DNA of 64,000 nucleotides from Mycobacteriales bacterium (GCA_035533475.1 DATLTS010000035.1:82507-146506); one strand, 5' to 3'. Numbered from the stretch's first letter, positions 3,001-25,719 are shown. A program made the numbers and translations. The notes: a model not told the origin generated them from the sequence alone.

Positions 3001-4554
3001 CCGGAGCGGGCGGGCGATCGACCGGAGCGGATGATCCGCCGGCACCTCCTCGGAACGAAATGCGGCGATCACGCCGAGATACGCGGTGGGCTGGCCGCGG
3101 TTCGCCGAGAGGCCCCGGAGCAGCCGAACCGTCAGGCCGTCGGCCCACTGGCAGTCGTCGAGTACCAGCAGCACCGGTCGTCGGGCCGACGCGACCGTGA
3201 CCAGCATCTGCTGGATCGCGCCCACGCTGCGCTGCTCGCCGAACTGTTCCGGACCGGCGTCCTCGTCGGGTGCCACCCCGAGCAGCCCGCTCAGCGACGG
3301 GAGCGCCCGGGCGACCGCCGGCGCGGCGTTCCCAAGTTCCGAGATCAGCTCCGCACGTGCCTCGACGTCCGCCTCCAGGGCGACGGCCAACCCCTGCGCG
3401 ATGCCGTCGAGCAGGGTGAAGGGACGCTGGGCCCCACGTGCCACCCCCTGCCCCTGTAGCACGGTGCAGCCGGCCTGGCTGGCCATTCGGGTGATCTCCG
3501 CGAGCAGGCGGCTCTTGCCCCCACCGGAATCCGCCTCGAGCAGGACCAGTCCACCGCTTCCCGCGGCAACGGCGTCGACCAGCAAGGTCAGCGACTCGAT
3601 TTCGGCAGCTCGGCCGACGAACGCGGGGTCCGCCAGGTTGCGCCGCTGGTCGAGCCGGCCGATGACGATCCGCGGATCGGCCTCGCCGCCCTGCACCGCC
3701 GCCAGCAGCTCGGACAGATCGGCAGCCAGCGCCGAAGCCGACTGGTAGCGCTCCCCCGGCTCCTTGCGCAACAGCCGCTGAATCACCGCGTCGACCGCTC
3801 CGGGAACGGCTATCCCGAGCCCGGGCAGGTCGGGTACCGGCATGCTCAGGTGTTGGCGGAGCATCTCCCCCACCCCGGGGCCGAGGAAGGGCGGCCGACC
3901 GGCCAGGCACTCGAAGAGCAGCACACCCAGCGCATAGAGGTCGGAACGTTCGTCGGCGGGGGCCCCGACCAGGCCGGCCGCTTCTGGGGCCAGGTAGCGC
4001 ACGGTTCCGACCAGGTCGTCGCGGATCGACTCGTCCAGCGACGGGCTCCGGGCGAACCCGAAGTCGATCAGCGTGACCGACGAGACCGGGTCGGTACCGT
4101 CGACGACGACGTTGGCCGGCTTGATGTCGCGATGGCAGATCCCGGCGCCGTGCGCGATATCCAGCGCGGTCGCCACGTCGACGCCGACGCGGAGAGCGGC
4201 CTCGACGCCGAGCCGGCCCCGCCGCAAGGCGGCCTCGAGGGTCGTGCCGGGCACGAACGGCTGGACGAGGAAGAGGCGGCCCTCGGCGTACCCGGAGTCG
4301 AGGAGCCCGGTGAGCCCGACGCCGGTCAGTTCCCGGAGCACCCGGGTCTCGTGCTCGAAGCGCAGCCGGGCAGCGGCGTGGACGAAGCTCGGATCGATCG
4401 ACTTGAGGACCACCTGGCGTCCGGTGTGGGTGTCGACCGCCAGCACGGTGTCGACCCCGCTGCCGCTCTTGAGAATCGGGCCCAACCCGTAGCGGCCGGC
4501 GAACCGGACCGCGCCGGCCGCCCATTCGGGCTGGCCCAGCCGATCGGACACCAC
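1..4554 (-). CDS. Multidomain Ser/Thr protein kinase (PknK-like): N-terminal kinase, AAA/NB-ARC-like ATPase, TPR-like repeats, GAF and PAS domains; 3' end beyond window (partial)
   Basis: Reverse-strand translation from GTG ~4554 gives HRDIKPANVVVDG...LIDFGFAR (kinase subdomains VIb/VII), then P-loop 'DSGGGKSRLL' and 'LVLDDCQWAD' (Walker B-like), then helical repeats, then GAF- and PAS-like sequence near 300-800. Kinase codon phase equals GAF/PAS phase (4554-774 divisible by 3). No stop-terminated ORF is listed for this frame, consistent with one ORF running off the edge. GGAGG-like RBS sits upstream of the GTG; an in-frame TAG lies just upstream. Confidence 0.75.
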   Translation of the reverse strand, partial: MVSDRLGQPEWAAGAVRFAGRYGLGPILKSGSGVDTVLAVDTHTGRQVVLKSIDPSFVHAAARLRFEHETRVLRELTGVGLTGLLDSGYAEGRLFLVQPFVPGTTLEAALRRGRLGVEAALRVGVDVATALDIAHGAGICHRDIKPANVVVDGTDPVSSVTLIDFGFARSPSLDESIRDDLVGTVRYLAPEAAGLVGAPADERSDLYALGVLLFECLAGRPPFLGPGVGEMLRQHLSMPVPDLPGLGIAVPGAVDAVIQRLLRKEPGERYQSASALAADLSELLAAVQGGEADPRIVIGRLDQRRNLADPAFVGRAAEIESLTLLVDAVAAGSGGLVLLEADSGGGKSRLLAEITRMASQAGCTVLQGQGVARGAQRPFTLLDGIAQGLAVALEADVEARAELISELGNAAPAVARALPSLSGLLGVAPDEDAGPEQFGEQRSVGAIQQMLVTVASARRPVLLVLDDCQWADGLTVRLLRGLSANRGQPTAYLGVIAAFRSEEVPADHPLRSIARPLRLGPLPPESMVMLAESMAGPVPREALDTLVRLADGNPFMGAAVLRGLVECGALTGTPEGWVVDEPALKDVQTARRSAAFLVSRLELLSAEALGLLSAGAVLGKEFDIAAAVALAGDPDDAAAIIEDARSRRLLWVDDRSGHCSFSHDKIREALLDRLSEDARRELHGRAADALANGNDGEPVPVFDLAYHLSAAGRDADALPYALAGASLARAQYALDAAVVHYRMAARGLDPADEVTRIQVCEGLGDVLTLQGAYAEAQTQLGAARSLVDDPTRAAALDGKLGDLAFKQGDVPVAKRHLEAALARLGRPIPRHPVLTLVRLSWELAVQTVHSILPRLTVGRRCADGRDEDFLAMRLYSRLAYVYWFHSGKVPCAWAHLRGMNLAERYPPSAELGQAYSEHAPVMTMLPWYGRGVKYAERSLEIRRQLDDVWGQGQSLGFAGVVLYAASRYTEAMAACREAVRLLERTGDRWEVNTAGWHIAFCLYRTGELAEAADVAREVLGAAQAIGDQAAAGIALSVWARARGGRIDGRLIDEQLAGGSEDAHTTCELQLASGLRLLDQGDLDAAAAALEAAMTTAGRAGLRQEYVAPIYPWYATVQRRLAEAAPAHNPALRSARIRRAASASRRSRRWAFTYRNNAPHALREAGLVASLRGRRRRAERLLGRSLRTAEEQGAQFELALTRLALAELAMAGGGSQQPHADALAAIRRFEPPDEPISETDGGSGASVSLFDRFTTLLKVGRMITAATSRGAVEAAIREAALTLLRGERCHLVPVAALHDEQLITQSGEAVDEISRTLLRRAVELGAPVVAGEPGTDDCESLLLSGIRSVLAAPIAVDGEPVSCFYVTHGKIGQLFGDEEVQLAAFIATLAGAAFEHLAGSETRFRSLAQNSSDVITLVDRDGVVSYQSAAATRVFALPAPGLLGQPITDWVHPDDLTRFTEALATAADSEGARIECRFRHSDGSYRSAETAVTNLLDEPTVAALVLNTRDVTDRRRLED

Positions 4555-4732
4555 TCGGGACCTCGCCTCCGCACCCGCCCATGTCGACTACGGACCGAAT
4601 TGTTTTGACTGCACACAGTGTCGCACCGCTTCGGCCCCCCATGGCCTTCGCGCAGGCCAAATGACTCGAAAGGACCACGCCCGGCCCGATGGCAGCGGGC
4701 CGACCGGCCGAACCGGCCCCGCGCGACCGGAC

Positions 4733-5101
4733 TCAGATCAGCGCGAGGCCGAAACCGGTCGCGGCCGCCGCCAGCCCGGCGGCAAAGCTACCGACGATGT
4801 TCAGGCCGGCCTCCCATGACGCACCTGCCTCCACCAGGGCGAGCGACTCGTACGCCCAGGTGGACAGGGTCGTGAAGCCGGCACAGAACCCTGCCGTGAG
4901 ATCCACGGTCGCCGTCCCCGGGAGTCCGTGGTGGAGCGCCAGACCGGCGAAGAGCCCGGCGAGCAACGAGCCCACGGTGTTGATGACGAACGTGCCGAGG
5001 GGGAACTGCCCCGTCGTCCGGTGATACACGAGCAGGTCCACGACGTACCGCGCGACCGCCCCGATCCCCGCGGTGACCGCCACTTCGACGCCCAGGATCA
5101 C
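4733..5101 (-). CDS. crcB: Fluoride ion channel CrcB/FluC (second subunit gene of a pair)
   Basis: 122 aa, 4 TM helices, CrcB-like 'GFCGGFTTFSTW'-type motif (here [12 protein letters not shown]). GTG start overlaps the upstream DUF190 stop (GTGA). Confidence 0.85.
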
Positions 5102-5463
5102 CGGTCCGGCTCGTCCCCGGGCTGGGCCACCCGGCCGACGTAGCGGACCACCTCGACGTCGTCGAGAATGACCAGCCCCTCGCTGATCAGCTCGTCCAGC
5201 TCGGGGAGGAAGGCCCGGATGCTTGCCTCGTCATCCACGACGACGATCACCAGCGGCAGGTCGTCGGACAGGCTGAGGATTCGGGTGGTGTGGATGTGGT
5301 TGGACGCGCCGAATCCTTCGATGCCGCGCAGAACCGAGCAGCCGGCGAGGCCGGCGCGGTGCGCCCGGGCGACGATCTCGTGGTACAGCGGCTTGTGGTG
5401 GTACTGGTCCGATTCGCCCAGGAAGATGCTGAGCCGAAGGGCCGGACCCTGCCGTCGCATCAT
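5098..5463 (-). CDS. DUF190-family protein (CrcB-associated, fluoride-responsive operons)
   Basis: About 121 aa starting [20 protein letters not shown]...; sits between two crcB genes with ATGA/GTGA overlaps. Upstream part of the listed ORF (to 5772) is out-of-frame overlap with crcB2. Confidence 0.75.
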
Positions 5464-5937
5464 GCTGCTCCCATCTCGCGGACGTGCGGTCGCCGGCCGG
5501 CGATCCAGCGGCCGGCGATGAAACCGAGCCCCGCGGCGGCCAAGCCGGCGGCCAGGCTCGCGAGCAGATAGGCCACGGCCGTACCGGGATGGCGGTGGGC
5601 CATCAACTGGTCGGTCCCGACCACGATCGAGGAGAAGGTGGTGTAGGCCCCGCAGAAGCCGGTGCCGAGCATCGGGCGCAGGAACCGGTCGCCACGGCCC
5701 AGGTCGATGGACAGCACGAGGAGCAATGGCAGGAGAAACGCCCCCGAACCGTTCACGACCAGCGTCGACCACGGGAAGCCGCGATCGGGGGTCGGCCAGG
5801 CCGCGGTCACGGCATAGCGCGCCGCTCCGCCGGCAACCCCCCCGATGAGCACGGCCACCAGGACGCCGGGACGCGGGCCCGGCCGGTGGCGTGCGCGAGC
5901 CGCGCCGAACGGCCGGTCGTCGGCGGCCTGCGTCACG
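5460..5937 (-). CDS. crcB: Fluoride ion channel CrcB/FluC (first subunit gene)
   Basis: C-terminal '[18 protein letters not shown]' CrcB motif. Start taken as GTG (~5937) preceded by GGAGG (ggaggtgtcGTG). The listed longer ORF to 6161 reads through the leader. Confidence 0.8.
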
Positions 5938-7976: not shown

Positions 7977-8171
7977 ATGGCGAAAATTCGGGTGCACTCC
8001 GATCGGCATCCCGGCGAAGTCGTCATGCGGGGAGTCGACGACGCCGTGCGGCGCGTGATCGACGATCAGCCAGACGCAGATCGCGAGCGGTCGCTGGGCC
8101 GGCAGGAAGCCTTCGTTCGTGAGATGCGTCGTATCGGGCGGTCCCGCCGTGACCGGCGCCGGGCGCGCTGA
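7977..8171 (+). CDS. Small hypothetical protein (~64 aa) at the edge of a lower-GC islet
   Basis: ATG preceded by GGAAGGGGG. Decent GC3 bias. Basic C-terminus. No recognisable family. Confidence 0.4.
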   Translation: MAKIRVHSDRHPGEVVMRGVDDAVRRVIDDQPDADRERSLGRQEAFVREMRRIGRSRRDRRRAR

Positions 8172-8201
8172 GCTCGAGCGATCCACCGGACCTTCCGGCG
8201 A

Positions 8202-8882
8202 TTGAGCTCGATCCGGAAGCGATCCTCCGTGCGCTCGACGGACACCGCGTTCGATACGTGCTCAGTCGACGCCCGGGTGACCTACGACCTCGATGTCGTC
8301 CCGCAAGCCGGGCATCTCAATCTGCGTCGGCTCGGATCGGCGTTGCGGAAGATTGGCGCCCGCGTGATCACCTTTTGGGATCCCGACACCGACGAGTTGC
8401 ACGTGGAGAGCATGAAGACCTCTTCGCACTTCAGCCTCGTCACGAAGCCCTCGAGGCTCCACGTCCGTCGCAGCCTTCGTGCTCTCGAAGTCCTTCTCGC
8501 AGGTGATGAGCGCTGCGGTCCTTCGATTTGCAGCGTCCCACTGCGAGGTGCCAGCACTCGCCCAGACACTGATCACTTCCCGGGGTCCGGCCGAGGCTTC
8601 GCGCGGCTCGGCGGGACGCGGGCCGGCTCGCCGGGCATCTTCGGGAAGTTCGGCGGGTACCCCGCCTCCCCGAGCCCCCGGTCCTTCTCGTCCCGCCCAT
8701 CCCATTCCAGCAGCGGCTCCAGCGAGAACGCGACGTCGTCGATCCCGGCGTGCAGATCACCCAGCTCCGCGAAGCGCGCCGGCATCGTCGCCATCGTGAA
8801 GTCGGTCGTCTCACAGTCCGCCAGCTCGTCCCAGGTGACGGGCGCCGACACGGTCGCGTCGGGTCGAGCGCGGACGCTGTAG
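8202..8882 (+). CDS. Hypothetical protein; N-terminal ~125 aa look genuine, 3' part reads antisense through the duplicated ligD fragment (possibly disrupted gene). Weak nucleotidyltransferase-like R-x-[ST]-x-D-L-D motif
   Basis: Strong GC3 bias on plus strand for 8202-8575 (minus-strand mirror ORF 8262-8705 has poor GC3). Motif RVTYDLDVV is reminiscent of AbiEii/MNT-type NTase toxins. Local GC markedly lower than surroundings. Confidence 0.35.
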   Translation: MSSIRKRSSVRSTDTAFDTCSVDARVTYDLDVVPQAGHLNLRRLGSALRKIGARVITFWDPDTDELHVESMKTSSHFSLVTKPSRLHVRRSLRALEVLLAGDERCGPSICSVPLRGASTRPDTDHFPGSGRGFARLGGTRAGSPGIFGKFGGYPASPSPRSFSSRPSHSSSGSSENATSSIPACRSPSSAKRAGIVAIVKSVVSQSASSSQVTGADTVASGRARTL

Positions 8883-8906
8883 GCGCTGGCGATGGTCCGG
8901 TCACGG
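8604..8906 (-). pseudogene. 3'-terminal fragment (~100 codons) of a LigD polymerase-domain gene; duplicate of 10344-10646
   Basis: Translated fragment DRTIASAYSVRARPDATVSAPVTWDELADCETTDFTMATMPARFAELGDLHAGIDDVAFSLEPLLEW... is near-identical to the C-terminus of the full gene at 10318-11370. No N-terminal catalytic part. Confidence 0.65.
8604..8906. repeat. Direct repeat copy 1 (~303 bp), identity high (~99%) over the distal ~200 bp and lower near the ligD stop
   Basis: Matches 10344-10646 with constant offset of 1740 bp. Confidence 0.8.
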
Positions 8907-8957
8907 AAGTCCTGTATGGCAACCTTCAGCGCCCGGCGAGTGCCCCGGCCCATGTGG

Positions 8958-9644
8958 CTAACTCGGACGGCTCCCTCCTCTGCCGCGCCGGGCGTTCGTT
9001 CGACGCTCCGGCTTAGCGAGTCGTTCTTGGGTGATGTCGATGGTCGTTCGCCGCTCTCTCCCAGAGCGTCGGTCCGACCGGGAAGGGCGACCGGCAGCCG
9101 GGGGTCCGTCGCCGAAATGCCGGACGAGGGGCAAGAGGCGCGCCGTAGGAGCGCCAACGTCGACTGCTGCCCACCCGCGGCTGTCAGGGGGGGCACCAAA
9201 GATCGCCCAGACGACCCCGTCGACGTCGGGCGCTTCGACAAGGCCACCTCGCGTGAATTGCCCGCGGGCGCCTCCTGGACGGAGAGCCGCTGAGGGGGCC
9301 TCGATGGCGTCTGCTCCGGCAGCGCGTAGCCGTCTCGCCTCATCTTGGCAGCTTGCGTACGTGTCAGTCCCGCCAAGGAGGATGTGTTCCGGAAGTTGCG
9401 GCTCGACAGCGTCGCCGATTTCTACGGGCAGTTGCACCGCCCAGATCCGGCGAATGATGCCTGCAAGGTCGGCCGGCTCCGTGATCTCCTCGTGGCGAAG
9501 AAATTCGGCCCATGCGCCGTCTGGGGTATCAGCGAGATATTGAACAGGACCGTCGCCTGCCGCGTGCCATCGCGCCGATGGCTGACCAGTGGACTCCCAG
9601 AAAAAGGGGAAGCGCGCGTCACTGTGCCGGAAGCCGATCGCCAT
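8958..9644 (-). CDS. RES-domain toxin (RES-Xre type II toxin-antitoxin family; MbcT-like)
   Basis: N-terminal 150 aa with RES-domain hallmarks (..ARWHAAGDGPVQYLADTPDGAWAEFLRHEE.., conserved R, E, S positions). Start ATG overlaps the antitoxin stop (TGATG). Arg-rich C-terminal tail of uncertain reality. Confidence 0.75.
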   Translation of the reverse strand: MAIGFRHSDARFPFFWESTGQPSARWHAAGDGPVQYLADTPDGAWAEFLRHEEITEPADLAGIIRRIWAVQLPVEIGDAVEPQLPEHILLGGTDTYASCQDEARRLRAAGADAIEAPSAALRPGGARGQFTRGGLVEAPDVDGVVWAIFGAPPDSRGWAAVDVGAPTARLLPLVRHFGDGPPAAGRPSRSDRRSGRERRTTIDITQERLAKPERRTNARRGRGGSRPS

Positions 9645-10252
9645 CAGGTGGCGCCGGCGCCAACCAGCCCCGCAGCGAGATCCCGCAACCGTTGTGTGTC
9701 ACCACTGTCAGCGTCAAAGCTGGTGCCGAGTAGGTCGCGTGGAGACCGCCCGTCCAGTCTCGCTCTCGGTCGATCGAACCAACGGCGGATGCCGTAGTCG
9801 TTGTAGGCGCCAGACAGGTCCGCGATGAGGAGTGCGAGATAGTGAAGCTGCGTAGCGACCTGGTCGGGTGTCGTGCGCGTGCCAGTGGCATAGCGGCGAA
9901 GTGAACTCGGTGATATCCCGACGAGATCTGCGAGGAGCCCCTCTCCCAACGTTTCAATGAGCGGGGCCCATTCACTCGTGGGCAGCGGGGACTGCTCGGT
10001 CTGCTCGAGCGCCGCGTCCAGCAGGGTGAGGTAGTCATCAGGGCCGCTGGCCCGTTGGAGCAACAGCCTGGACTTTTGGCCGACTCCAGCCTCGGAGAGC
10101 TTCGTGAACGCGAGAAGCAAGAGTGCTCGGTCGAGCTCGAGCGGCCCCTCAAGGCCCGGGAGGAGTCCGAAGTAATGGATGCGCGAGATCAATCGAGCGG
10201 CCGCGCTGCCGACGGCCGGATCTACGGATAGTGGCTCGCTAATGGACAGAAT
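9644..10252 (-). CDS. Xre-family antitoxin with HTH and C-terminal DUF2384 domain (MbcA/ParS-like)
   Basis: HTH 'LVGISPSSLRRYATGTRTTPDQVATQLHYLALL'. DUF2384-like 'YGIRRWFDRPRARLDGRSPRDLLG'. Start uncertain (no in-frame ATG; GTG ~10252 proposed). Upstream part of the listed ORF (to 10444) overlaps the repeat. Confidence 0.7.
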   Translation of the reverse strand: MLSISEPLSVDPAVGSAAARLISRIHYFGLLPGLEGPLELDRALLLLAFTKLSEAGVGQKSRLLLQRASGPDDYLTLLDAALEQTEQSPLPTSEWAPLIETLGEGLLADLVGISPSSLRRYATGTRTTPDQVATQLHYLALLIADLSGAYNDYGIRRWFDRPRARLDGRSPRDLLGTSFDADSGDTQRLRDLAAGLVGAGAT

Positions 10253-10317
10253 CTGGATAGCTGGCACACCCAAAGTATGCCCGAAACGGATCCGCGAGAC
10301 AAGGTCCAGGTCCCTCG

Positions 10318-11370
10318 TCAGCTCGGCGACCTCTTTCGAGCCCGGCTCGGCTGGACGCGGGCCGGCTCCCCGGGCATCTTCGGGAAGTTCGGCGGGTACG
10401 GCGCCTCCCCCAAGCCGCGGTCCCGCTCGTCTCGCTCCGCCCACTCGAGCAACGGCTCCAGCGAGAACGCCACGTCGTCGATCCCGGCGTGCAGATCACC
10501 CAGCTCCGCGAAGCGCGCCGGCATCGTCGCCATCGTGAAGTCGGTCGTCTCACAGTCCGCCAGCTCGTCCCAGGTGACGGGCGCTGACACGGTCGCGTCG
10601 GGTCGAGCGCGGACGCTGTAGGCGCTGGCGATGGTCCGGTCACGGGCGTTCTGGTTGAAGTCGAGGAACACCTTCTCGCCTCGTTCCTCCTTCCACCACG
10701 ACGTGGTCACCGCGTCCGGAAGGCGGCGCTCGAGTTCGCGGCCGAAAGCCAGCGCGGCCCTCCGCACCACCGGAAACTCCCAACGCGGCTCGATCCGCAC
10801 GTAGACGTGTATCCCGCGATTGCCGGAAGTCTTCGGCCAGCCGGTGTAGCCCAGATCGGAAAGCACGGCCCGGACCTCTGCGGCCACGGTGCGAGCCTCC
10901 GCAAAAGACGTGCCAGGCTGAGGGTCGAGGTCTAGCCGCAGCTCGTCGGGATGCTCGGTGTCGCGCCGGCGGGCCGGCCACGGGTGGAAGTCGAGGGTCG
11001 CCAGGTTGGCGGCCCAGCAGACCGCCGCGACATCGGTGACGCACAGGGCATCCGCGTGCCGGCCCGAGGGGAAGCTCACCCGGGCGGTCTCGATCCATTC
11101 CGGCCGGTGCTCGGGCACCCGTTTCTGGTAGATCGGCTCGGTCCCGGCGCCGTCTGGGTGCCGCTTGAGATACGTCGGTCGCTCGAACAGGCCCCGGACC
11201 ACGCCGTCGCCGACGGCGAGGTAGTAATTCACCAGATCGATCTTGGTTTCCCCGCGAACCGGGAAGAGCACCTTGTCCGGGTTGCTCACTCGCACCGCGT
11301 GCCCCGCCGCCTCGACCTCGACCGCGGGCACCGGCATGACGCGGACGCTACCTTGCGCCGGCCCGGTCAC
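10318..11370 (-). CDS. ligD: Stand-alone LigD polymerase domain (NHEJ primase-polymerase PolDom/PrimPol-like)
   Basis: 350 aa; motifs 'LDLDP', 'GNRGIHVYVRI', 'DRTIASAYSVRAR' typical of LigD-Pol/archaeo-eukaryotic primase superfamily. No Ku or ligase domain nearby. Confidence 0.85.
   Translation of the reverse strand: MTGPAQGSVRVMPVPAVEVEAAGHAVRVSNPDKVLFPVRGETKIDLVNYYLAVGDGVVRGLFERPTYLKRHPDGAGTEPIYQKRVPEHRPEWIETARVSFPSGRHADALCVTDVAAVCWAANLATLDFHPWPARRRDTEHPDELRLDLDPQPGTSFAEARTVAAEVRAVLSDLGYTGWPKTSGNRGIHVYVRIEPRWEFPVVRRAALAFGRELERRLPDAVTTSWWKEERGEKVFLDFNQNARDRTIASAYSVRARPDATVSAPVTWDELADCETTDFTMATMPARFAELGDLHAGIDDVAFSLEPLLEWAERDERDRGLGEAPYPPNFPKMPGEPARVQPSRARKRSPS
10344..10646. repeat. Direct repeat copy 2 (3' end of intact ligD-pol gene)
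   Basis: See copy 1. Confidence 0.8.
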
Positions 11371-11449: not shown

Positions 11450-12013
11450 GTGGAGGTGAGTTCGGTGCTCGCGCTGTCAAGACGGTTTGCTGGGTTGATG
11501 CTGCTGGTGCTCGGCGCCTGGGGCGCCGCCCTTCCCTACGTCGGGCCGCTGTTCGGCTACCGGATGGACGGCACACCGACCTTCACGACGGCACACTGGG
11601 AGCTAAACCTGCTCCCCGGGATCGGGGCTGCGCTGGCCGGGCTGATCCTCATCGTCACGGCCCGCTCGTCGAGCGGCCTCGGTGGGCTGCTCGCGATCGG
11701 CAGTGGCGCCTGGTTCGTTGTCGGCCCGCTGTTCGCCTCCACATGGCTCGCGAACGCCCAGACCCGGGTGGCATCGGGCCGGCTCTCGCAGACCCTGGCG
11801 CCGCTCGGTTACCACTACGGACTGGGTCTGTTGATCGTCGCGATCGGCGCCTGGGTACTCGGTCGCCTGCTCGTTCTCGCCCATCCGGTCGGTGACTACG
11901 CGCCGCCGTCGACTGCCACCGGACGGCGCCGGCACCGGCTCGGCCGCGGAGCGGCCGACGCACCGGACCCGACCGTCGCTGAACCGGAGATGGCACCCAC
12001 GACCACCCGCTAG
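11450..12013 (+). CDS. Hypothetical integral membrane protein (4-5 TM)
   Basis: GTG start, hydrophobic helices, Ala/Gly/Leu-rich. Confidence 0.5.
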   Translation: MEVSSVLALSRRFAGLMLLVLGAWGAALPYVGPLFGYRMDGTPTFTTAHWELNLLPGIGAALAGLILIVTARSSSGLGGLLAIGSGAWFVVGPLFASTWLANAQTRVASGRLSQTLAPLGYHYGLGLLIVAIGAWVLGRLLVLAHPVGDYAPPSTATGRRRHRLGRGAADAPDPTVAEPEMAPTTTR

Positions 12014-12086: not shown

Positions 12087-12800
12087 CTATGGCAAGGCGG
12101 CGACGAGATCGCGTAGCGGCTTGCGCACCCCGGTGTAGAAGGGAACCTCGATCCTGGTGTGGATCCGGGCCCGGGCCCCCCGCAGGTGGCGCATGAGGTC
12201 GACGATCCGGTGCAGCTCGTCCGCTTCGAAAGCGAGCATCCACTCGTAGTCGTTGAGCGCGAAACAGGCCACGGTGTTCGCCCGGACGTCCGGGTACTCG
12301 CGGGCCATCTTCCCGTGCTCCGCAAGCATTTCCTGACGCTCCGCGGGGTCGAGCAGGTACCAGTCGTAGGAGCGGACGAACGGATACACGCACAGGTAGC
12401 GCCGTGGCTCCTCATCGCGGAGGAACGCCGGGATGTGGCCCTTGTTGAACTCGGCGGGCCGGTGCAACGCCATCACCGACCACACCGCCTCGCTGGCCCG
12501 GCCGAGTGCGGTCTGCCGGAACCGGCCGTACACCTCCTGGAGTTCGTCCGGTCCCGGGGCGGTCCACCAGAACAGGTAGTCTGCGTCCGCCCGGTAGCCG
12601 GCTACGTCGTAGCTGCCGCGGGTCACGATGTCCTTGGTCGCGCACTGTTCGAGCAGCTGCGCCACCTCGTCGCTCACGCCATCGCGAGCCGCGTCGCCGA
12701 GGCGGCCAGTATCAGTGCGCGCCCGGAACACCGCATACATGGTGTAGCGCAACTCGTCGTTGAGCTCCCGGGCGGTTTTCGCTTGTCGGGTAGCTGCCAT
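12087..12800 (-). CDS. hemQ: Coproheme decarboxylase HemQ/ChdC (chlorite-dismutase-like)
   Basis: 'YTMYAVFR', 'WYLLD' motifs. Start may be the ATG at 12824 or 12800. Confidence 0.85.
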   Translation of the reverse strand: MAATRQAKTARELNDELRYTMYAVFRARTDTGRLGDAARDGVSDEVAQLLEQCATKDIVTRGSYDVAGYRADADYLFWWTAPGPDELQEVYGRFRQTALGRASEAVWSVMALHRPAEFNKGHIPAFLRDEEPRRYLCVYPFVRSYDWYLLDPAERQEMLAEHGKMAREYPDVRANTVACFALNDYEWMLAFEADELHRIVDLMRHLRGARARIHTRIEVPFYTGVRKPLRDLVAALP

Positions 12801-12866
12801 GGGGACATTGTCGCGTGCGTGCACGGAGGCGTCGGGCGCCGGTCCCCGGCGGCCAGCGGTCAGCGG

Positions 12867-14240
12867 TCAGCGGGGCATGACGGCCCGTCCGGCGGACCGG
12901 CCGGAACGGATGCAGGCCGCGATCCCGACCCCGTCATAGGCCGCCCCGCACACAGCGATACCGGATAGCCCCGCTAAACCGGCTCGGATCCGCGTCACCC
13001 GGTCCAGGTGACCCACGGTGTACTGCGGGAGAGCCCCGCCCCAGCGGCTGACCCGGCTCTCGACCGGCCGGGATGCCCCGATCGCAGCGGCCAGATCGTC
13101 CGCGGCCCCGGCGACGAGATCGGCGTCGTCGCGCTGAAGATCGCCGACGTCGCCGTAGCGGCCCACCGAGCATCGGATCACGGCCAGCTCGCCCGCTAGA
13201 TGCGCCCATTTCGCCGAGGCGAACGTCGCCGCCTTGATCAGGCGGTGGTCGACTGCCGGCACCAGGAAGCCGCTTCCGGTGGCCCGCGCGGCGGCCCCCT
13301 TGGGATAGGCGAGGGTGACGATCGCGACGCTGGCGTAGTCGATGCCTGCCACGCCCGCCGCCACCGAGGGGAAGAGGGGGCGTAACAGGCGTGCCGCCGG
13401 AGCCGCCGGAAGCGCGAGGATCACGGCGTCGGCGTCCAGTCGCTCCCCCCCGGCCGTGCCGTCACCGAGCACAAGTCGCCAGCCACCGTCGCTCGTGCGG
13501 GCCAGCTCCCGGACCGGGTGCCCGGTGCGCACGACGACCCCCTCGGCCGCGAGCCGGGCGCCCAGCACCGTCGGCAGGGCACCCAGCCCGCCGGCGAGGG
13601 TTGCGAACACGGGACCGGCGGACGGGGCGGCGGCCAGGCCGCGGCGAGCCGCCCGGACCAGCGATCCGCCCCGAGCGGCCGCCGCGGCGAGCGCGGGCAT
13701 CGTCGCCGCGACCGACAGCTCGTCGGCCCGACCGGCGTAGACGCCGCCGAGCAGCGGGTCAACCAGCCGCTCGACCACCTCGCGGCCCAGCCTGCGCCCG
13801 ACGAACGCCCCCACCGCCTGATCCGCCCCGAACCGCCCACCGGTTCGACCTAGATCGGCCATGGCGCGCAACAGACCGGGCCACGACAGAACGCGGCTGC
13901 GGCCCAGGGTGCGCAGATCGGCGGGGACACCGAGCAGGGTGCGGGCCGGCAACGCCCGAAGCCGGCCGCGGGTCCACACCCACGCCGACGCGGTTGCCGG
14001 GTAGGCGAGTCGGTCGCCCAGCCCGAGTTCGCGGACCAGCCCCACCGCGTCCGGCACCCGGGCAAGGAACGACTCTGCCCCCTCGTCGACCGCCCGGCCG
14101 GCGACCTCGGACGTCGCAAGCTTCCCGCCGAGCCGCCCGCTGGCTTCGACGACCGTGACCGCCGCATCGGCCCGCAGCTCCCAGGCCGCGGCCAGCCCGC
14201 TGATCCCGCCGCCCACGACGACGACGTGCGGTCGTGGCAC
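12867..14240 (-). CDS. hemY: Coproporphyrinogen/protoporphyrinogen oxidase HemY (CgoX), FAD-dependent
   Basis: N-terminal 'VVVGGGISGLAAAW' dinucleotide fold. Length 457 aa. Confidence 0.85.
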   Translation of the reverse strand: MPRPHVVVVGGGISGLAAAWELRADAAVTVVEASGRLGGKLATSEVAGRAVDEGAESFLARVPDAVGLVRELGLGDRLAYPATASAWVWTRGRLRALPARTLLGVPADLRTLGRSRVLSWPGLLRAMADLGRTGGRFGADQAVGAFVGRRLGREVVERLVDPLLGGVYAGRADELSVAATMPALAAAAARGGSLVRAARRGLAAAPSAGPVFATLAGGLGALPTVLGARLAAEGVVVRTGHPVRELARTSDGGWRLVLGDGTAGGERLDADAVILALPAAPAARLLRPLFPSVAAGVAGIDYASVAIVTLAYPKGAAARATGSGFLVPAVDHRLIKAATFASAKWAHLAGELAVIRCSVGRYGDVGDLQRDDADLVAGAADDLAAAIGASRPVESRVSRWGGALPQYTVGHLDRVTRIRAGLAGLSGIAVCGAAYDGVGIAACIRSGRSAGRAVMPR

Positions 14241-24168: not shown

Positions 24169-25719
24169 TCAGCCTCCCCACGACTCGTCGGACCAGGTCG
24201 ACGCCGACCAGGTCGAGGCGGACCAGGTGGAGGCCGACCAGGTCGAGGCCGACCAGGTCGACGCGGACCAGGTGGAGGCGGACCAGGTGGAGGCCGACCA
24301 GGTGGAGGCCGACCAGGTGGAGGCGGACCAGGTCGAGGCCGTCCAGGCCGGCCCCGACCACCCGCTGGCCAGCCACTGCTCCCACGAACCATTCAGCCAG
24401 GCGTTTCCCTGCCACTGCTGGGAGTCGAAGCCGGCCATGCCGGACCACTGGTCGGTGGCGTCCGCGCTAAGCATCCGGTCGGCGATCTCGAGCAACCCGG
24501 CGCCAGCCGCGATCCCCGCGGTAGGACCGGAGATGGCGTCGGCCGAGCGGCGCAGCGACGCCTTGGCCTCGAGCGGGCTGGCGCCGCGGTGCTCACTGAA
24601 GAAGATGGCGGCGACCCCGCTGGCGATCGCGGTCGCCATGCTCGAGCCTGACCCACGGAACAGGCCGCTCGGTTGCCAGCCCTGCGGGTTCTGCTCGGCG
24701 ATCACCGAGTTCGCCGGCATCTCACCGAGCACGTGGACACCGGAGGCGACCAGGTCTGGTTTGGCCACACCGGCCACCAGGCCCGAGCCGGAGAAGTCGG
24801 CGACCCGCGGCGCCTCGCCGGTCGTGTCCGCGGCGCCGACCGTGAGCGCCGCGACGTCATCCCCCGGGTCACCGACCTGACCGGGCGTGTTGCCCACGGC
24901 GACGACCGGCAGGACCCCCGCGGCGAACACGTGCTCGATCCCGGCGGTCAACGGATCGGCCCCGTAGTCCGGTGCCATCGGCCGGACCTGGGCGAGCGCG
25001 ATGTTGACGACTTGGATCGCCCGCGCGTGGGCGGCCACCCAGTCCAGGCCGGCGAGCACCTCGGACAGCGAGGTGGTGCCGGTGTCGTCGGCAACCTTGA
25101 CCACGACGATCCGGGCTCCCGGCGCGACGCCCAGGGCCTGACCGTGACTTCCCGGTGCGGGGCCCCCGGCGATCAGCGAGGACAGGAAGGTGCCGTGCCC
25201 GTAGCCATCGGTGAACGTTCCGCTGGTCTGCGCCTGTCCCCCGTTGAACAGCTGCGAGACGTCGACCCCGTCGGTCACCTGACCCGAGGCCCGGTTCAGG
25301 GCGGGGGTGTCGGTGAGGCCGGTGTCGAGGACCGCGACGTTGACACCGGTGCCCGCCTCCGGCGATCCGGCTCTGCCGCCGAGCCCGGCGGACGCGAACA
25401 CCGAACCGTCGCCCGACCCGTCCTGGCCGCGGCCCTGCACCGCGAAGCGGGAGTCCCCGGCGATGCCGAGCACGCCGGGGGCGTGGGCCAACCGGGCGAG
25501 GGCGTCGGGCGTGCCGCTGACGACCTCGCTTTGGACGTGCACCAAGTTCGCCAGGAGCCGCACGCCGGGCACCGTCACCGGGTGCGTCGAGGCGAGCGCC
25601 ACGACCGCGGTGACCGGGCGCCCGGTTGGTGCCACGGCAAGGGCAGGCGTCACCGACAGCGCGAGGGCGCCGGCGGCGACCGCCGCCACTAGTGCTGCCG
25701 AGCGTCGGGAGTCGGGCAC
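24169..25719 (-). CDS. Secreted subtilisin-like serine protease (S8) with C-terminal Trp-rich (STWSA)x10 repeat
   Basis: D (VAVLDTG), H (GHGTF) and S (GSSMATA) catalytic triad motifs. Signal peptide. Confidence 0.85.
   Translation of the reverse strand: MPDSRRSAALVAAVAAGALALSVTPALAVAPTGRPVTAVVALASTHPVTVPGVRLLANLVHVQSEVVSGTPDALARLAHAPGVLGIAGDSRFAVQGRGQDGSGDGSVFASAGLGGRAGSPEAGTGVNVAVLDTGLTDTPALNRASGQVTDGVDVSQLFNGGQAQTSGTFTDGYGHGTFLSSLIAGGPAPGSHGQALGVAPGARIVVVKVADDTGTTSLSEVLAGLDWVAAHARAIQVVNIALAQVRPMAPDYGADPLTAGIEHVFAAGVLPVVAVGNTPGQVGDPGDDVAALTVGAADTTGEAPRVADFSGSGLVAGVAKPDLVASGVHVLGEMPANSVIAEQNPQGWQPSGLFRGSGSSMATAIASGVAAIFFSEHRGASPLEAKASLRRSADAISGPTAGIAAGAGLLEIADRMLSADATDQWSGMAGFDSQQWQGNAWLNGSWEQWLASGWSGPAWTASTWSASTWSASTWSASTWSASTWSASTWSASTWSASTWSASTWSASTWSDESWGG
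24181..24340. repeat. Perfect in-frame 15-bp tandem repeat x ~10 (GACCAGGTSGASGCS) inside the subtilase 3' end
   Basis: Read directly from sequence. Confidence 0.9.

Follow-up and report, generated by a model that had tools for sequence, protein, structure and literature searches.

Mosaic copies of a ligD-pol 3' end around an Xre-RES toxin-antitoxin cassette: a possible scar of 3'-end displacement

Introduction

How did a toxin-antitoxin (TA) cassette come to lie between two copies of the 3' end of a housekeeping repair gene? The question is raised by a 64-kb window of a Mycobacteriales genome (GCA_035533475.1, DATLTS010000035.1:82507-146506; "the window" denotes this whole stretch of 64,000 nucleotides), which derives from a soil-type metagenome contig (JGI 3300031670, Ga0307374_10000171). 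Locus genes were compared in the orientation of the - strand, with coordinates counted along the window. On that strand the order is hemY, hemQ, ligD-pol (a stand-alone LigD primase-polymerase gene), an antitoxin-like gene, a RES toxin gene and an orphan ligD-pol fragment (Table 1). A first-pass annotation had read the locus as an Xre-RES pair carried into the ligD 3' region by homology-mediated insertion or gene conversion. The answer that we favour, at about an even chance of being right, is a recombination scar of the 3'-end displacement type whose donor was a related bacterium. The evidence for it lies in the internal structure of the repeat that brackets the cassette.

A breakpoint inside the direct repeat

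By base-by-base count, the direct repeat comprises 307 nt (8600-8906 and 10339-10645) at an offset of 1739 and brackets the Xre-RES pair. Each copy corresponds to roughly the final ~100 codons of ligD-pol. The two copies reported around the TA genes are therefore confirmed, with their offset corrected from 1740 and their limits moved to these positions. A repeat search of the window retrieved 8601-8900 against 10340-10639 (93%, spacing 1739), and blastn aligned 8601-8906 with 10340-10645 over 306 nt (E=3e-128) at 93.5% identity, where above ~85% had been expected of true copies. It is the only long dispersed repeat that blastn found within the window. Copy 2 is the 3' end of an intact gene and copy 1 is an orphan, as first described: the intact product matches the Pfam family LigD_Prim-Pol (PF21686) with E=1.2e-92, while copy 1 covers profile positions 199-254 only, the last quarter.

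The identity between the copies had been described as graded, near-perfect at one end and decaying towards the stop codons. It is instead a three-block mosaic with a breakpoint. Counted from the sharp 5' edge in ligD orientation, block A is 99% identical, block B 72% (15 mismatches) and block C about 94%, and the differences between adjacent blocks are significant (Fisher test, A vs B p=1.7e-9, B vs C p=7e-4). The final ~20 nt and the stop codons are unrelated between the copies, which end in different, natural-looking Pro/Arg-rich tails, each with its own stop codon. Copy 1 reads ...WDGRDEKD...PSRAKPRPDPGK before its stop and copy 2 reads ...WAERDERD...RKRSPS. About half of the nucleotide changes in block B are synonymous (8 synonymous, 7 non-synonymous), which argues for two alleles under purifying selection and not for the decay of one copy. 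The copy-2 allele, that of the intact gene, agrees with the family consensus throughout, its block B residues being LLEWAERDERDRGLGEAP. The copy-1 allele has three changes where the family varies; two more, private to it, alter near-invariant residues (P to G in EAPYPP, Q to P in RVQPSR). Such changes at near-invariant positions of an orphan are expected after displacement.

As a control, blocks A, B and C were compared among 81 ligD-pol genes, giving 3,240 orthologue pairs. In pairs whose block C identity was 0.90-0.97, block B spanned 0.52-0.98 and block A 0.66-0.97. The distal B/C pattern is thus ordinary for two moderately diverged ligD-pol alleles, and it is the 99% proximal block A that is abnormal. 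The observed difference of block B minus block A (-0.27) lies under the minimum of all 3,240 pairs (-0.259). Because this contrast falls outside the range of orthologue pairs, it points to a recombination breakpoint at about repeat positions 179-198. From the pattern of identity we conclude that block A would be one allele present in both copies, and that blocks B and C and the tail would represent two different ligD-pol lineages. On this reading the true duplication is limited to 193 nt, and the similarity over the other ~115 nt reflects the orthology of the donor and resident alleles. For the event, a 3'-end displacement that duplicated 193 nt is the best description, not a duplication of 300 nt with graded decay.

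Homology does not extend past the repeat edges in either direction, being no better than in shuffled sequences (p=0.76 upstream, p=0.69 downstream). A KV..DF resemblance upstream of copy 1 was considered as residual ligD-pol homology and rejected on the same shuffles (p=0.76). Transposition with target-site duplication, which the first-pass annotation had already dismissed, is likewise rejected: the repeat is 193-307 nt long, against 2-15 bp for such duplications, the cassette ends lack terminal inverted repeats, and no transposase domain is present.

Purely local events offer another account of the repeat. Here the cassette would have arrived after the ligD-pol stop by an unrelated route, and the gene's own 3' end would have been copied downstream, either by tandem duplication of a 1739-bp unit followed by deletion or by filler or template-switch repair, with the 53-nt patch of block B acquired later. 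Such an account would suit the host-like GC content at third codon positions (GC3) of both copies, and the truncation of the neighbouring nucleotidyltransferase gene ~70 nt from the orphan's stop could mark a deletion endpoint. Partial local copies of ligD-pol do occur, as in locus L031, where a 249-nt copy is found with no TA genes. What such events leave unexplained is the 53-nt block itself, 72% identical with half of its changes synonymous, together with the two natural-looking tails. Elsewhere in the window the patch has no template. Of the 10 matches that a degenerate WDGRDEKD pattern found in the contigs of the metagenome collection scanned, none lies in a ligD-pol gene. The end of the repeat within about 20 nt of the cassette start would also be a coincidence. 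We regard a purely local origin as distinctly unlikely.

Agreement between assemblies

The layout might be the product of an assembly chimera, in which the near-identical 193 nt led to the threading together of two strains or loci. The sequence was assembled from short metagenomic reads, and the Logan contig, based on k=31, breaks inside both repeats. Against this, the window and the JGI, ENA (k141) and Logan contigs are 100% identical over the 5.5 kb compared, and the longest exact stretch common to both copies (113 nt) falls short of both k=141 and the length of a typical read. The exact ligD-pol is on record on five long contigs, all of which collapsed to one place with identical neighbouring genes. 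The Logan contig, present in three runs, holds both unique junctions, one from the ligD tail to the antitoxin gene and the other from the RES gene through the spacer into 32 nt of ligD block A. The presence of ligD sequence on both sides of the cassette is therefore real, whatever the phasing, and we consider a chimera very improbable.

A compositionally foreign Xre-RES cassette

The cassette is compositionally foreign: its GC3 is 0.67-0.71, compared with 0.86-0.88 in hemY, hemQ, ligD-pol and a beta-helix gene. Relatives of the cassette are likewise poorer in GC3 than their hosts. The toxin ATG overlaps the antitoxin stop by 1 nt (TGATG, 9644-9646), and the antitoxin-toxin order and the overlap are kept in all relatives examined. 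The translational coupling claimed for the pair is supported by this overlap. The RES match is above the cut-off, and the DUF2384 match of its partner is just below threshold.

The RES protein is complete. It has 2,558 homologues, which bear the name 'RES family NAD+ phosphorylase' at NCBI and of which the closest are 66-70% identical, and it matches weakly to the solved RES toxins 9r35 and 6gw6. In a 16-sequence alignment, R6, R11, R25, E52/E53 and S118 are invariant or near-invariant and constitute candidate catalytic Arg, Glu and Ser residues. The protein also has an Arg-rich C-terminal extension of ~50 aa (residues ~180-228) with spaced (D/E)RR motifs, following the pattern RRSG.ERR.TIDL...ER..PERR...DRR.G.DRR. 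This extension is conserved in a subfamily of relatives of 226-244 aa, which align to the end, and is missing from the ~176-aa majority. The predicted RES structure (AlphaFold) had a predicted local distance difference test (pLDDT) score of 45, too low to use.

The antitoxin appears to be a distant member of the Xre/ParS type. Its GTG start was set by alignment with the partners of RES relatives, the closest of which are also 207 aa long, and lies 50 nt past the ligD-pol stop. Its score against Xre_MbcA_ParS_C/DUF2384 (PF09722) is 22.5 bits, just below the cut-off of 24.5, and against NCBIfam NF049845 (Xre_ParS_antitoxin) it reaches E=9e-5 over positions 20-97 of 112, its score of 22.5 bits being far under the cut-off of 90. 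The match to HTH_3 is weak (E=0.011) and places a helix-turn-helix (HTH) near residues 112-135; the C-terminal region appears toxin-binding-like. The N-terminal ~100 aa (residues 1-105) contain a motif, M..IQ..SI.EPL...AAARL, that is kept in the partners of related RES proteins, and were matched by no Pfam or NCBIfam model. A PDB search with an antitoxin profile of 6 homologues gave no match, and a single-sequence structure model was too poor to use (pLDDT 37).

A candidate promoter ends 6 nt before the antitoxin GTG and would yield a leaderless transcript. It matches 8 of 12 consensus positions, which is under the threshold of the consensus promoter scan, and that scan found no site at its threshold. 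The cassette should work as a type II RES-Xre module: the predicted RES toxin would deplete NAD+ unless bound by the antitoxin, which would also repress the operon. A functional link between RES-Xre systems and DNA damage (GndRX, PMC12457610) was set aside, as relatives of the cassette are never near genes of non-homologous end joining (NHEJ).

Relatives, donor and empty site

The nearest ligD-pol among 5.8 billion proteins is 81% identical, and the ligD-pol products of the 80 genome loci examined are at most 75% identical to that of the window. The synteny hemY-hemQ-ligD-pol recurs in many of the actinobacterial loci examined, which places the intact ligD-pol in its ancestral position. A conserved, ancient repeat-TA-repeat layout was looked for in these relatives, and none of the 80 ligD-pol loci had the cassette or a second ligD-pol 3' fragment within 10 kb. 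Since the cassette is absent from these loci while synteny is kept, it is a lineage-specific insertion. The exact ligD-pol was found only in assemblies with the same layout. The donor arrangement, ligD-pol followed directly by the cassette, was seen in none of the 80 loci or the five contexts of RES relatives, a thin sampling. Flanking repeats as a general trait of this TA family were rejected, as those five contexts contain neither ligD-pol nor cassette-flanking repeats. As a separate observation, loci L115-L118 have an unrelated 181-nt repeat (78% identity) upstream of a related Xre-RES pair, which it does not flank; in L115 its copies lie at 2256-2431 and 3650-3824, the repeated segment overlapping a 66-aa gene and a 254-aa gene separating the two copies.

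Beyond the 3' end of ligD-pol, the window and its nearest relatives have no conserved flank, and a tblastx comparison of the downstream flank, noisy in high-GC DNA, found no strong downstream gene common to both. A variable flank of this kind would be expected if the locus were the remnant of a site-specific integrative element that targeted the ligD-pol 3' end and brought a replacement for it, from which all but the addictive TA genes were later deleted. TA modules are typical survivors of decayed islands, and elements of this type are recognized by an intact target gene accompanied by a directly oriented orphan copy of its 3' end. Between the repeats, however, there are only two genes, neither of them a recombinase, and no integrase. 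No viral contig with a ligD-pol 3' fragment was found, no second 3' fragment occurs within 10 kb in the 80 loci, and an integrative element does not predict the mosaic pattern. We give this origin hardly any weight.

A proposed history of the locus

According to the history that we favour, the resident ligD-pol would have ended in the copy-1 sequence and faced the convergent nucleotidyltransferase gene or pseudogene. The incoming DNA would have come from a related high-GC actinobacterium in which the Xre-RES cassette directly followed ligD-pol. Pairing with the resident gene would have taken place in the conserved 3' part of the coding sequence, and the exchange would have been resolved about 135-150 nt before the stop codon, at about repeat positions 179-198. 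An illegitimate join would have linked the far end of the donor DNA, 51 nt past the RES stop, to a point in the resident gene that lies 193 nt before the crossover; the spacer at 8907-8957 is the presumed illegitimate junction. Three products would result: a working hybrid ligD-pol, resident in its 5' part and closing with ~45 codons from the donor; the cassette, under a promoter of its own; and the displaced resident 3' end. At the empty site predicted by this sequence of events, ligD-pol would end in ...WDGRDEKD...PSRAKPRPDPGK and the nucleotidyltransferase gene would come next; in the predicted donor lineage, ligD-pol would end in ...WAERDERD...RKRSPS, with the Xre-RES pair 50 nt further on. 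Cells that lost the cassette by recombination between the 193-nt repeats would be penalized by the toxin. If this history is right, the locus would allow a test of whether a TA module guards itself against deletion between the repeats that flank it.

Several points weigh against this history. With linear donor DNA and a single chromosome, two simple crossovers cannot duplicate resident DNA, and the duplication would need sister-chromosome bridging, an ends-in or circular intermediate, or a later conversion (Campbell-type integration with conversion of block A). Neither Xre nor RES was found within 10 kb of ligD-pol in any of the 80 loci, all from other species, and the closest RES relatives occupy five unrelated contexts, none near ligD-pol and none flanked by repeats. 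No empty site was found, the nearest ligD-pol being only 81% identical. The repeat-cassette-repeat layout is known from one case, and its sequence derives from short-read metagenome assemblies. Finally, the distal part of copy 2 has a GC3 of about 0.93 (count from the codon table), host-like and not cassette-like; the immediate donor would then have been a high-GC relative to whose genome the cassette was itself foreign. Of the homology-mediated insertion or gene conversion originally proposed, recombination with a diverged allele and a foreign cassette are thus retained, and the donor and the empty site were not found.

The mechanical difficulty disappears if a small circle carrying a foreign ligD-pol 3' end and the cassette was integrated by a single Campbell-type crossover. 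This would duplicate the whole ~330-nt homology, and gene conversion between the repeats would then homogenize the first 193 nt. A circle crossover gives the repeat-insert-repeat topology exactly, with no need of sister chromosomes. The distal blocks do resemble two alleles, and the near-identical block begins exactly at the edge of homology, where a conversion tract must stop. The cost is two events and a circle of ~1.7 kb without a replication or recombination gene of its own, the initial crossover being between sequences only about 80% identical; databases contain no such circle and no second copy of the cassette. We consider this route unlikely.

The 1.7-kb unit of cassette and ligD-pol 3' end might, in a more general view, be a recombinationally mobile hitchhiker that uses a piece of a core gene as a portable homology arm. 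Homologous capture would spread it from one related actinobacterium to another, the 193-nt repeats would allow it to loop out as a circle, and addiction would retain it. If this were general, repeats of core-gene ends would mark recombinase-free mobility of TA and defence genes. We hold this view to be very unlikely. As for the earlier suggestion that the locus exemplifies TA modules moving by homologous capture, homologous recombination with a foreign allele is visible here, in a single case that does not establish a general route. A single case from an uncultured organism, with no comparators, is an illustrative example of a known process and not a new principle. If the displacement did take place as proposed, the locus would be a clean natural record of a TA cassette crossing between related genomes without a mobility gene of its own, by riding on the homology of a conserved neighbour and leaving behind a displaced gene end and a datable 193-nt duplication.

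Neighbouring genes and other features of the window

The product identical to that of the intact ligD-pol is named 'non-homologous end-joining DNA ligase, MAG Mycobacteriales bacterium' by NCBI. Public pipelines call the 126-aa open reading frame (ORF) over the orphan fragment as a gene; it is probably a pseudogene. Recurrent orphan ligD-pol ends were considered, because the orphan's distal 52 aa matched many short C-terminal ORFs on long contigs. They were rejected: the two that were checked are frameshift artefacts, from long-read assemblies with many fragmented genes, and none of the short ligD-pol C-terminal ORFs found has the orphan's private residues. In two ENA assemblies (ERZ25039583 and ERZ25039557; L101 and L102) the neighbouring genes are fragmented, and short ligD-pol C-terminal proteins there can mimic orphan ends. 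A different arrangement is found in L031, an unrelated long-read metagenome-assembled genome (uncultured Actinomycetota MFD09671.bin.2.120), where an internal ligD-pol fragment of 249 nt (residues 141-222) is duplicated 1169 bp downstream at 98% identity, with no TA genes (10387-10635 and 11556-11804). The downstream copy lies past a small membrane gene on the opposite strand and is joined, in frame, to the beginning of an ORF of 1636 aa.

The gene starting at 8202 had been proposed as the neighbour by which an empty site could be recognized. Its ORF (8202-8882) proved to be half antisense shadow and half decayed pseudogene. The first ~100 codons have a coding signal by codon-position GC and found six homologues among 1.84 billion representatives (best E=4e-11), which match DUF6036/AbiEii. 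In the alignment, the nucleotidyltransferase core is kept, both ends are degenerate and the 3' third is gone, the truncation lying about 70 nt from the orphan's stop. Residues 133-225 match the antisense strand of ligD-pol in the genome loci examined, and the rest of the ORF reads as an antisense shadow of copy 1. The decayed, TA-like nucleotidyltransferase in the ligD-pol 3' flank suggests that this site accepts insertions. A 64-aa ORF at 7977-8171 (+) is in frame with the remnant, with a single stop codon between them; the two may be what is left of a single gene or of a further two-gene module. Over this stretch (7977-8500) GC is locally lower, at 0.63.

Scans of the whole window found no tRNA and no Rfam family at gathering score, the fluoride riboswitch included. 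Downstream of the locus, public gene calls place a crcB-DUF190-crcB cluster at ~4700-5936 on the - strand. A tandem repeat of the 15-nt unit GACCAGGTCGAGGCC lies within long ORFs at 24191-24347 (10.5 copies, 90% identity) and probably encodes a 5-residue protein repeat.

Table 1. Coordinates of the repeat blocks, cassette genes and neighbouring features, numbered along the window
Feature	Position	Strand	Remarks
Decayed, 3'-truncated DUF6036/AbiEii-type nucleotidyltransferase pseudogene	8202-8500	+	convergent on the orphan fragment
126-aa ORF over the orphan fragment	8573-8953	-	ATG 4 nt past the RES stop; own Pro-rich tail and stop
Copy 1, orphan	8600-8906	-	block A 8714-8906, block B 8661-8713, block C 8600-8660
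Spacer	8907-8957	-	51 nt, from the RES stop to the sharp 5' edge of copy 1
RES-domain toxin	8958-9644	-	228 aa; PF08808, E=4.5e-10, 40.2 bits vs cut-off 23.2
Arg-rich RES C-terminal extension	8958-9110	-	
Antitoxin, apparently of a distant Xre/ParS type	9644-10267	-	207 aa from GTG 10267
Antitoxin N-terminal region	9950-10267	-	
Candidate cassette promoter	10274-10302	-	TTGTCT, 17 nt, CATACT; inferred from sequence reading only
Intact stand-alone LigD primase-polymerase (ligD-pol)	10318-11370	-	350 aa by longest ORF; 339 aa in public records
Copy 2 block C	10339-10399	-	61 nt; 3-4 mismatches; then unrelated 21-nt tail and stop codon 10318-10320
Copy 2 block B	10400-10452	-	53 nt; 72% vs copy 1; residues as family consensus
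Copy 2 block A	10453-10645	-	193 nt; 2 differences from copy 1, both synonymous (codon-by-codon comparison)
Small membrane ORF	between hemQ and ligD-pol	+	
hemQ / chlorite-dismutase-like	12087-12824	-	
hemY	12867-14240	-	

Comparison with known systems

The cassette appears to belong with the type II RES-Xre systems, represented by MbcTA of Mycobacterium tuberculosis (PMC6436930) and by the Xre-RES structure of Pseudomonas putida (6gw6). As in these, a RES toxin gene follows an overlapping antitoxin gene whose product has HTH-like and C-terminal toxin-binding-like regions, and as in RES-Xre systems at large it is a solitary two-gene cassette found in varied chromosomal contexts. Unlike them, it represents a divergent subfamily, in which the toxin has an Arg-rich C-terminal extension and the antitoxin is sub-threshold in Pfam and NCBIfam, has an additional N-terminal ~100 aa and finds no match in PDB.

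In its layout the locus recalls integrative elements that rebuild the 3' end of the gene into which they insert, such as phage 21 and e14 at icd and the islands in tRNA genes. Like phage 21 and e14, it combines an intact target bearing an incoming 3' end with the orphaned original end as a direct repeat on the far side. It differs from them in having no integrase, no recurrent use of the target, an insert of 1.4 kb and a mosaic breakpoint inside the repeat.

Homology-facilitated illegitimate recombination in transformation and conjugation, reported for Escherichia coli conjugation in PMC3240628, provides a mechanistic parallel. One-sided homology, an illegitimate far join and foreign DNA trapped beside a conserved gene are features in common. 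The experimental products of de Vries & Wackernagel 2002, Prudhomme et al. 2002 and Meier & Wackernagel 2003, all cited in PMC5361080, are reportedly mostly insertion-deletions; unlike these, the locus described here would have 193 nt of resident DNA duplicated.

The same process has been proposed for the effector-immunity arrays of type VI secretion system (T6SS) clusters in Vibrio, and it has been held responsible for C-terminal displacement and for the rows of orphaned 3' ends at Rhs and T6SS loci (PMC5361080; Jackson et al. 2009, PMC2935791, as cited there). As in displacement at Rhs, contact-dependent inhibition (CDI) and T6SS loci, a conserved gene would anchor homology and the incoming DNA would supply a new 3' end with downstream cargo, the old 3' end being moved downstream and kept as an orphan in the same orientation, with no integrase or transposase. 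In those systems the displaced part is a variable toxin tip, and the process is recurrent and produces arrays that diversify weaponry. Here, by contrast, the anchor is a housekeeping NHEJ polymerase, the two ends code for one and the same conserved domain, a classical TA pair makes up the cargo, and a single event is seen. If the proposed history is true, 3'-end displacement, known from polymorphic-toxin loci, would also act on a housekeeping repair gene, with a TA module as its cargo.

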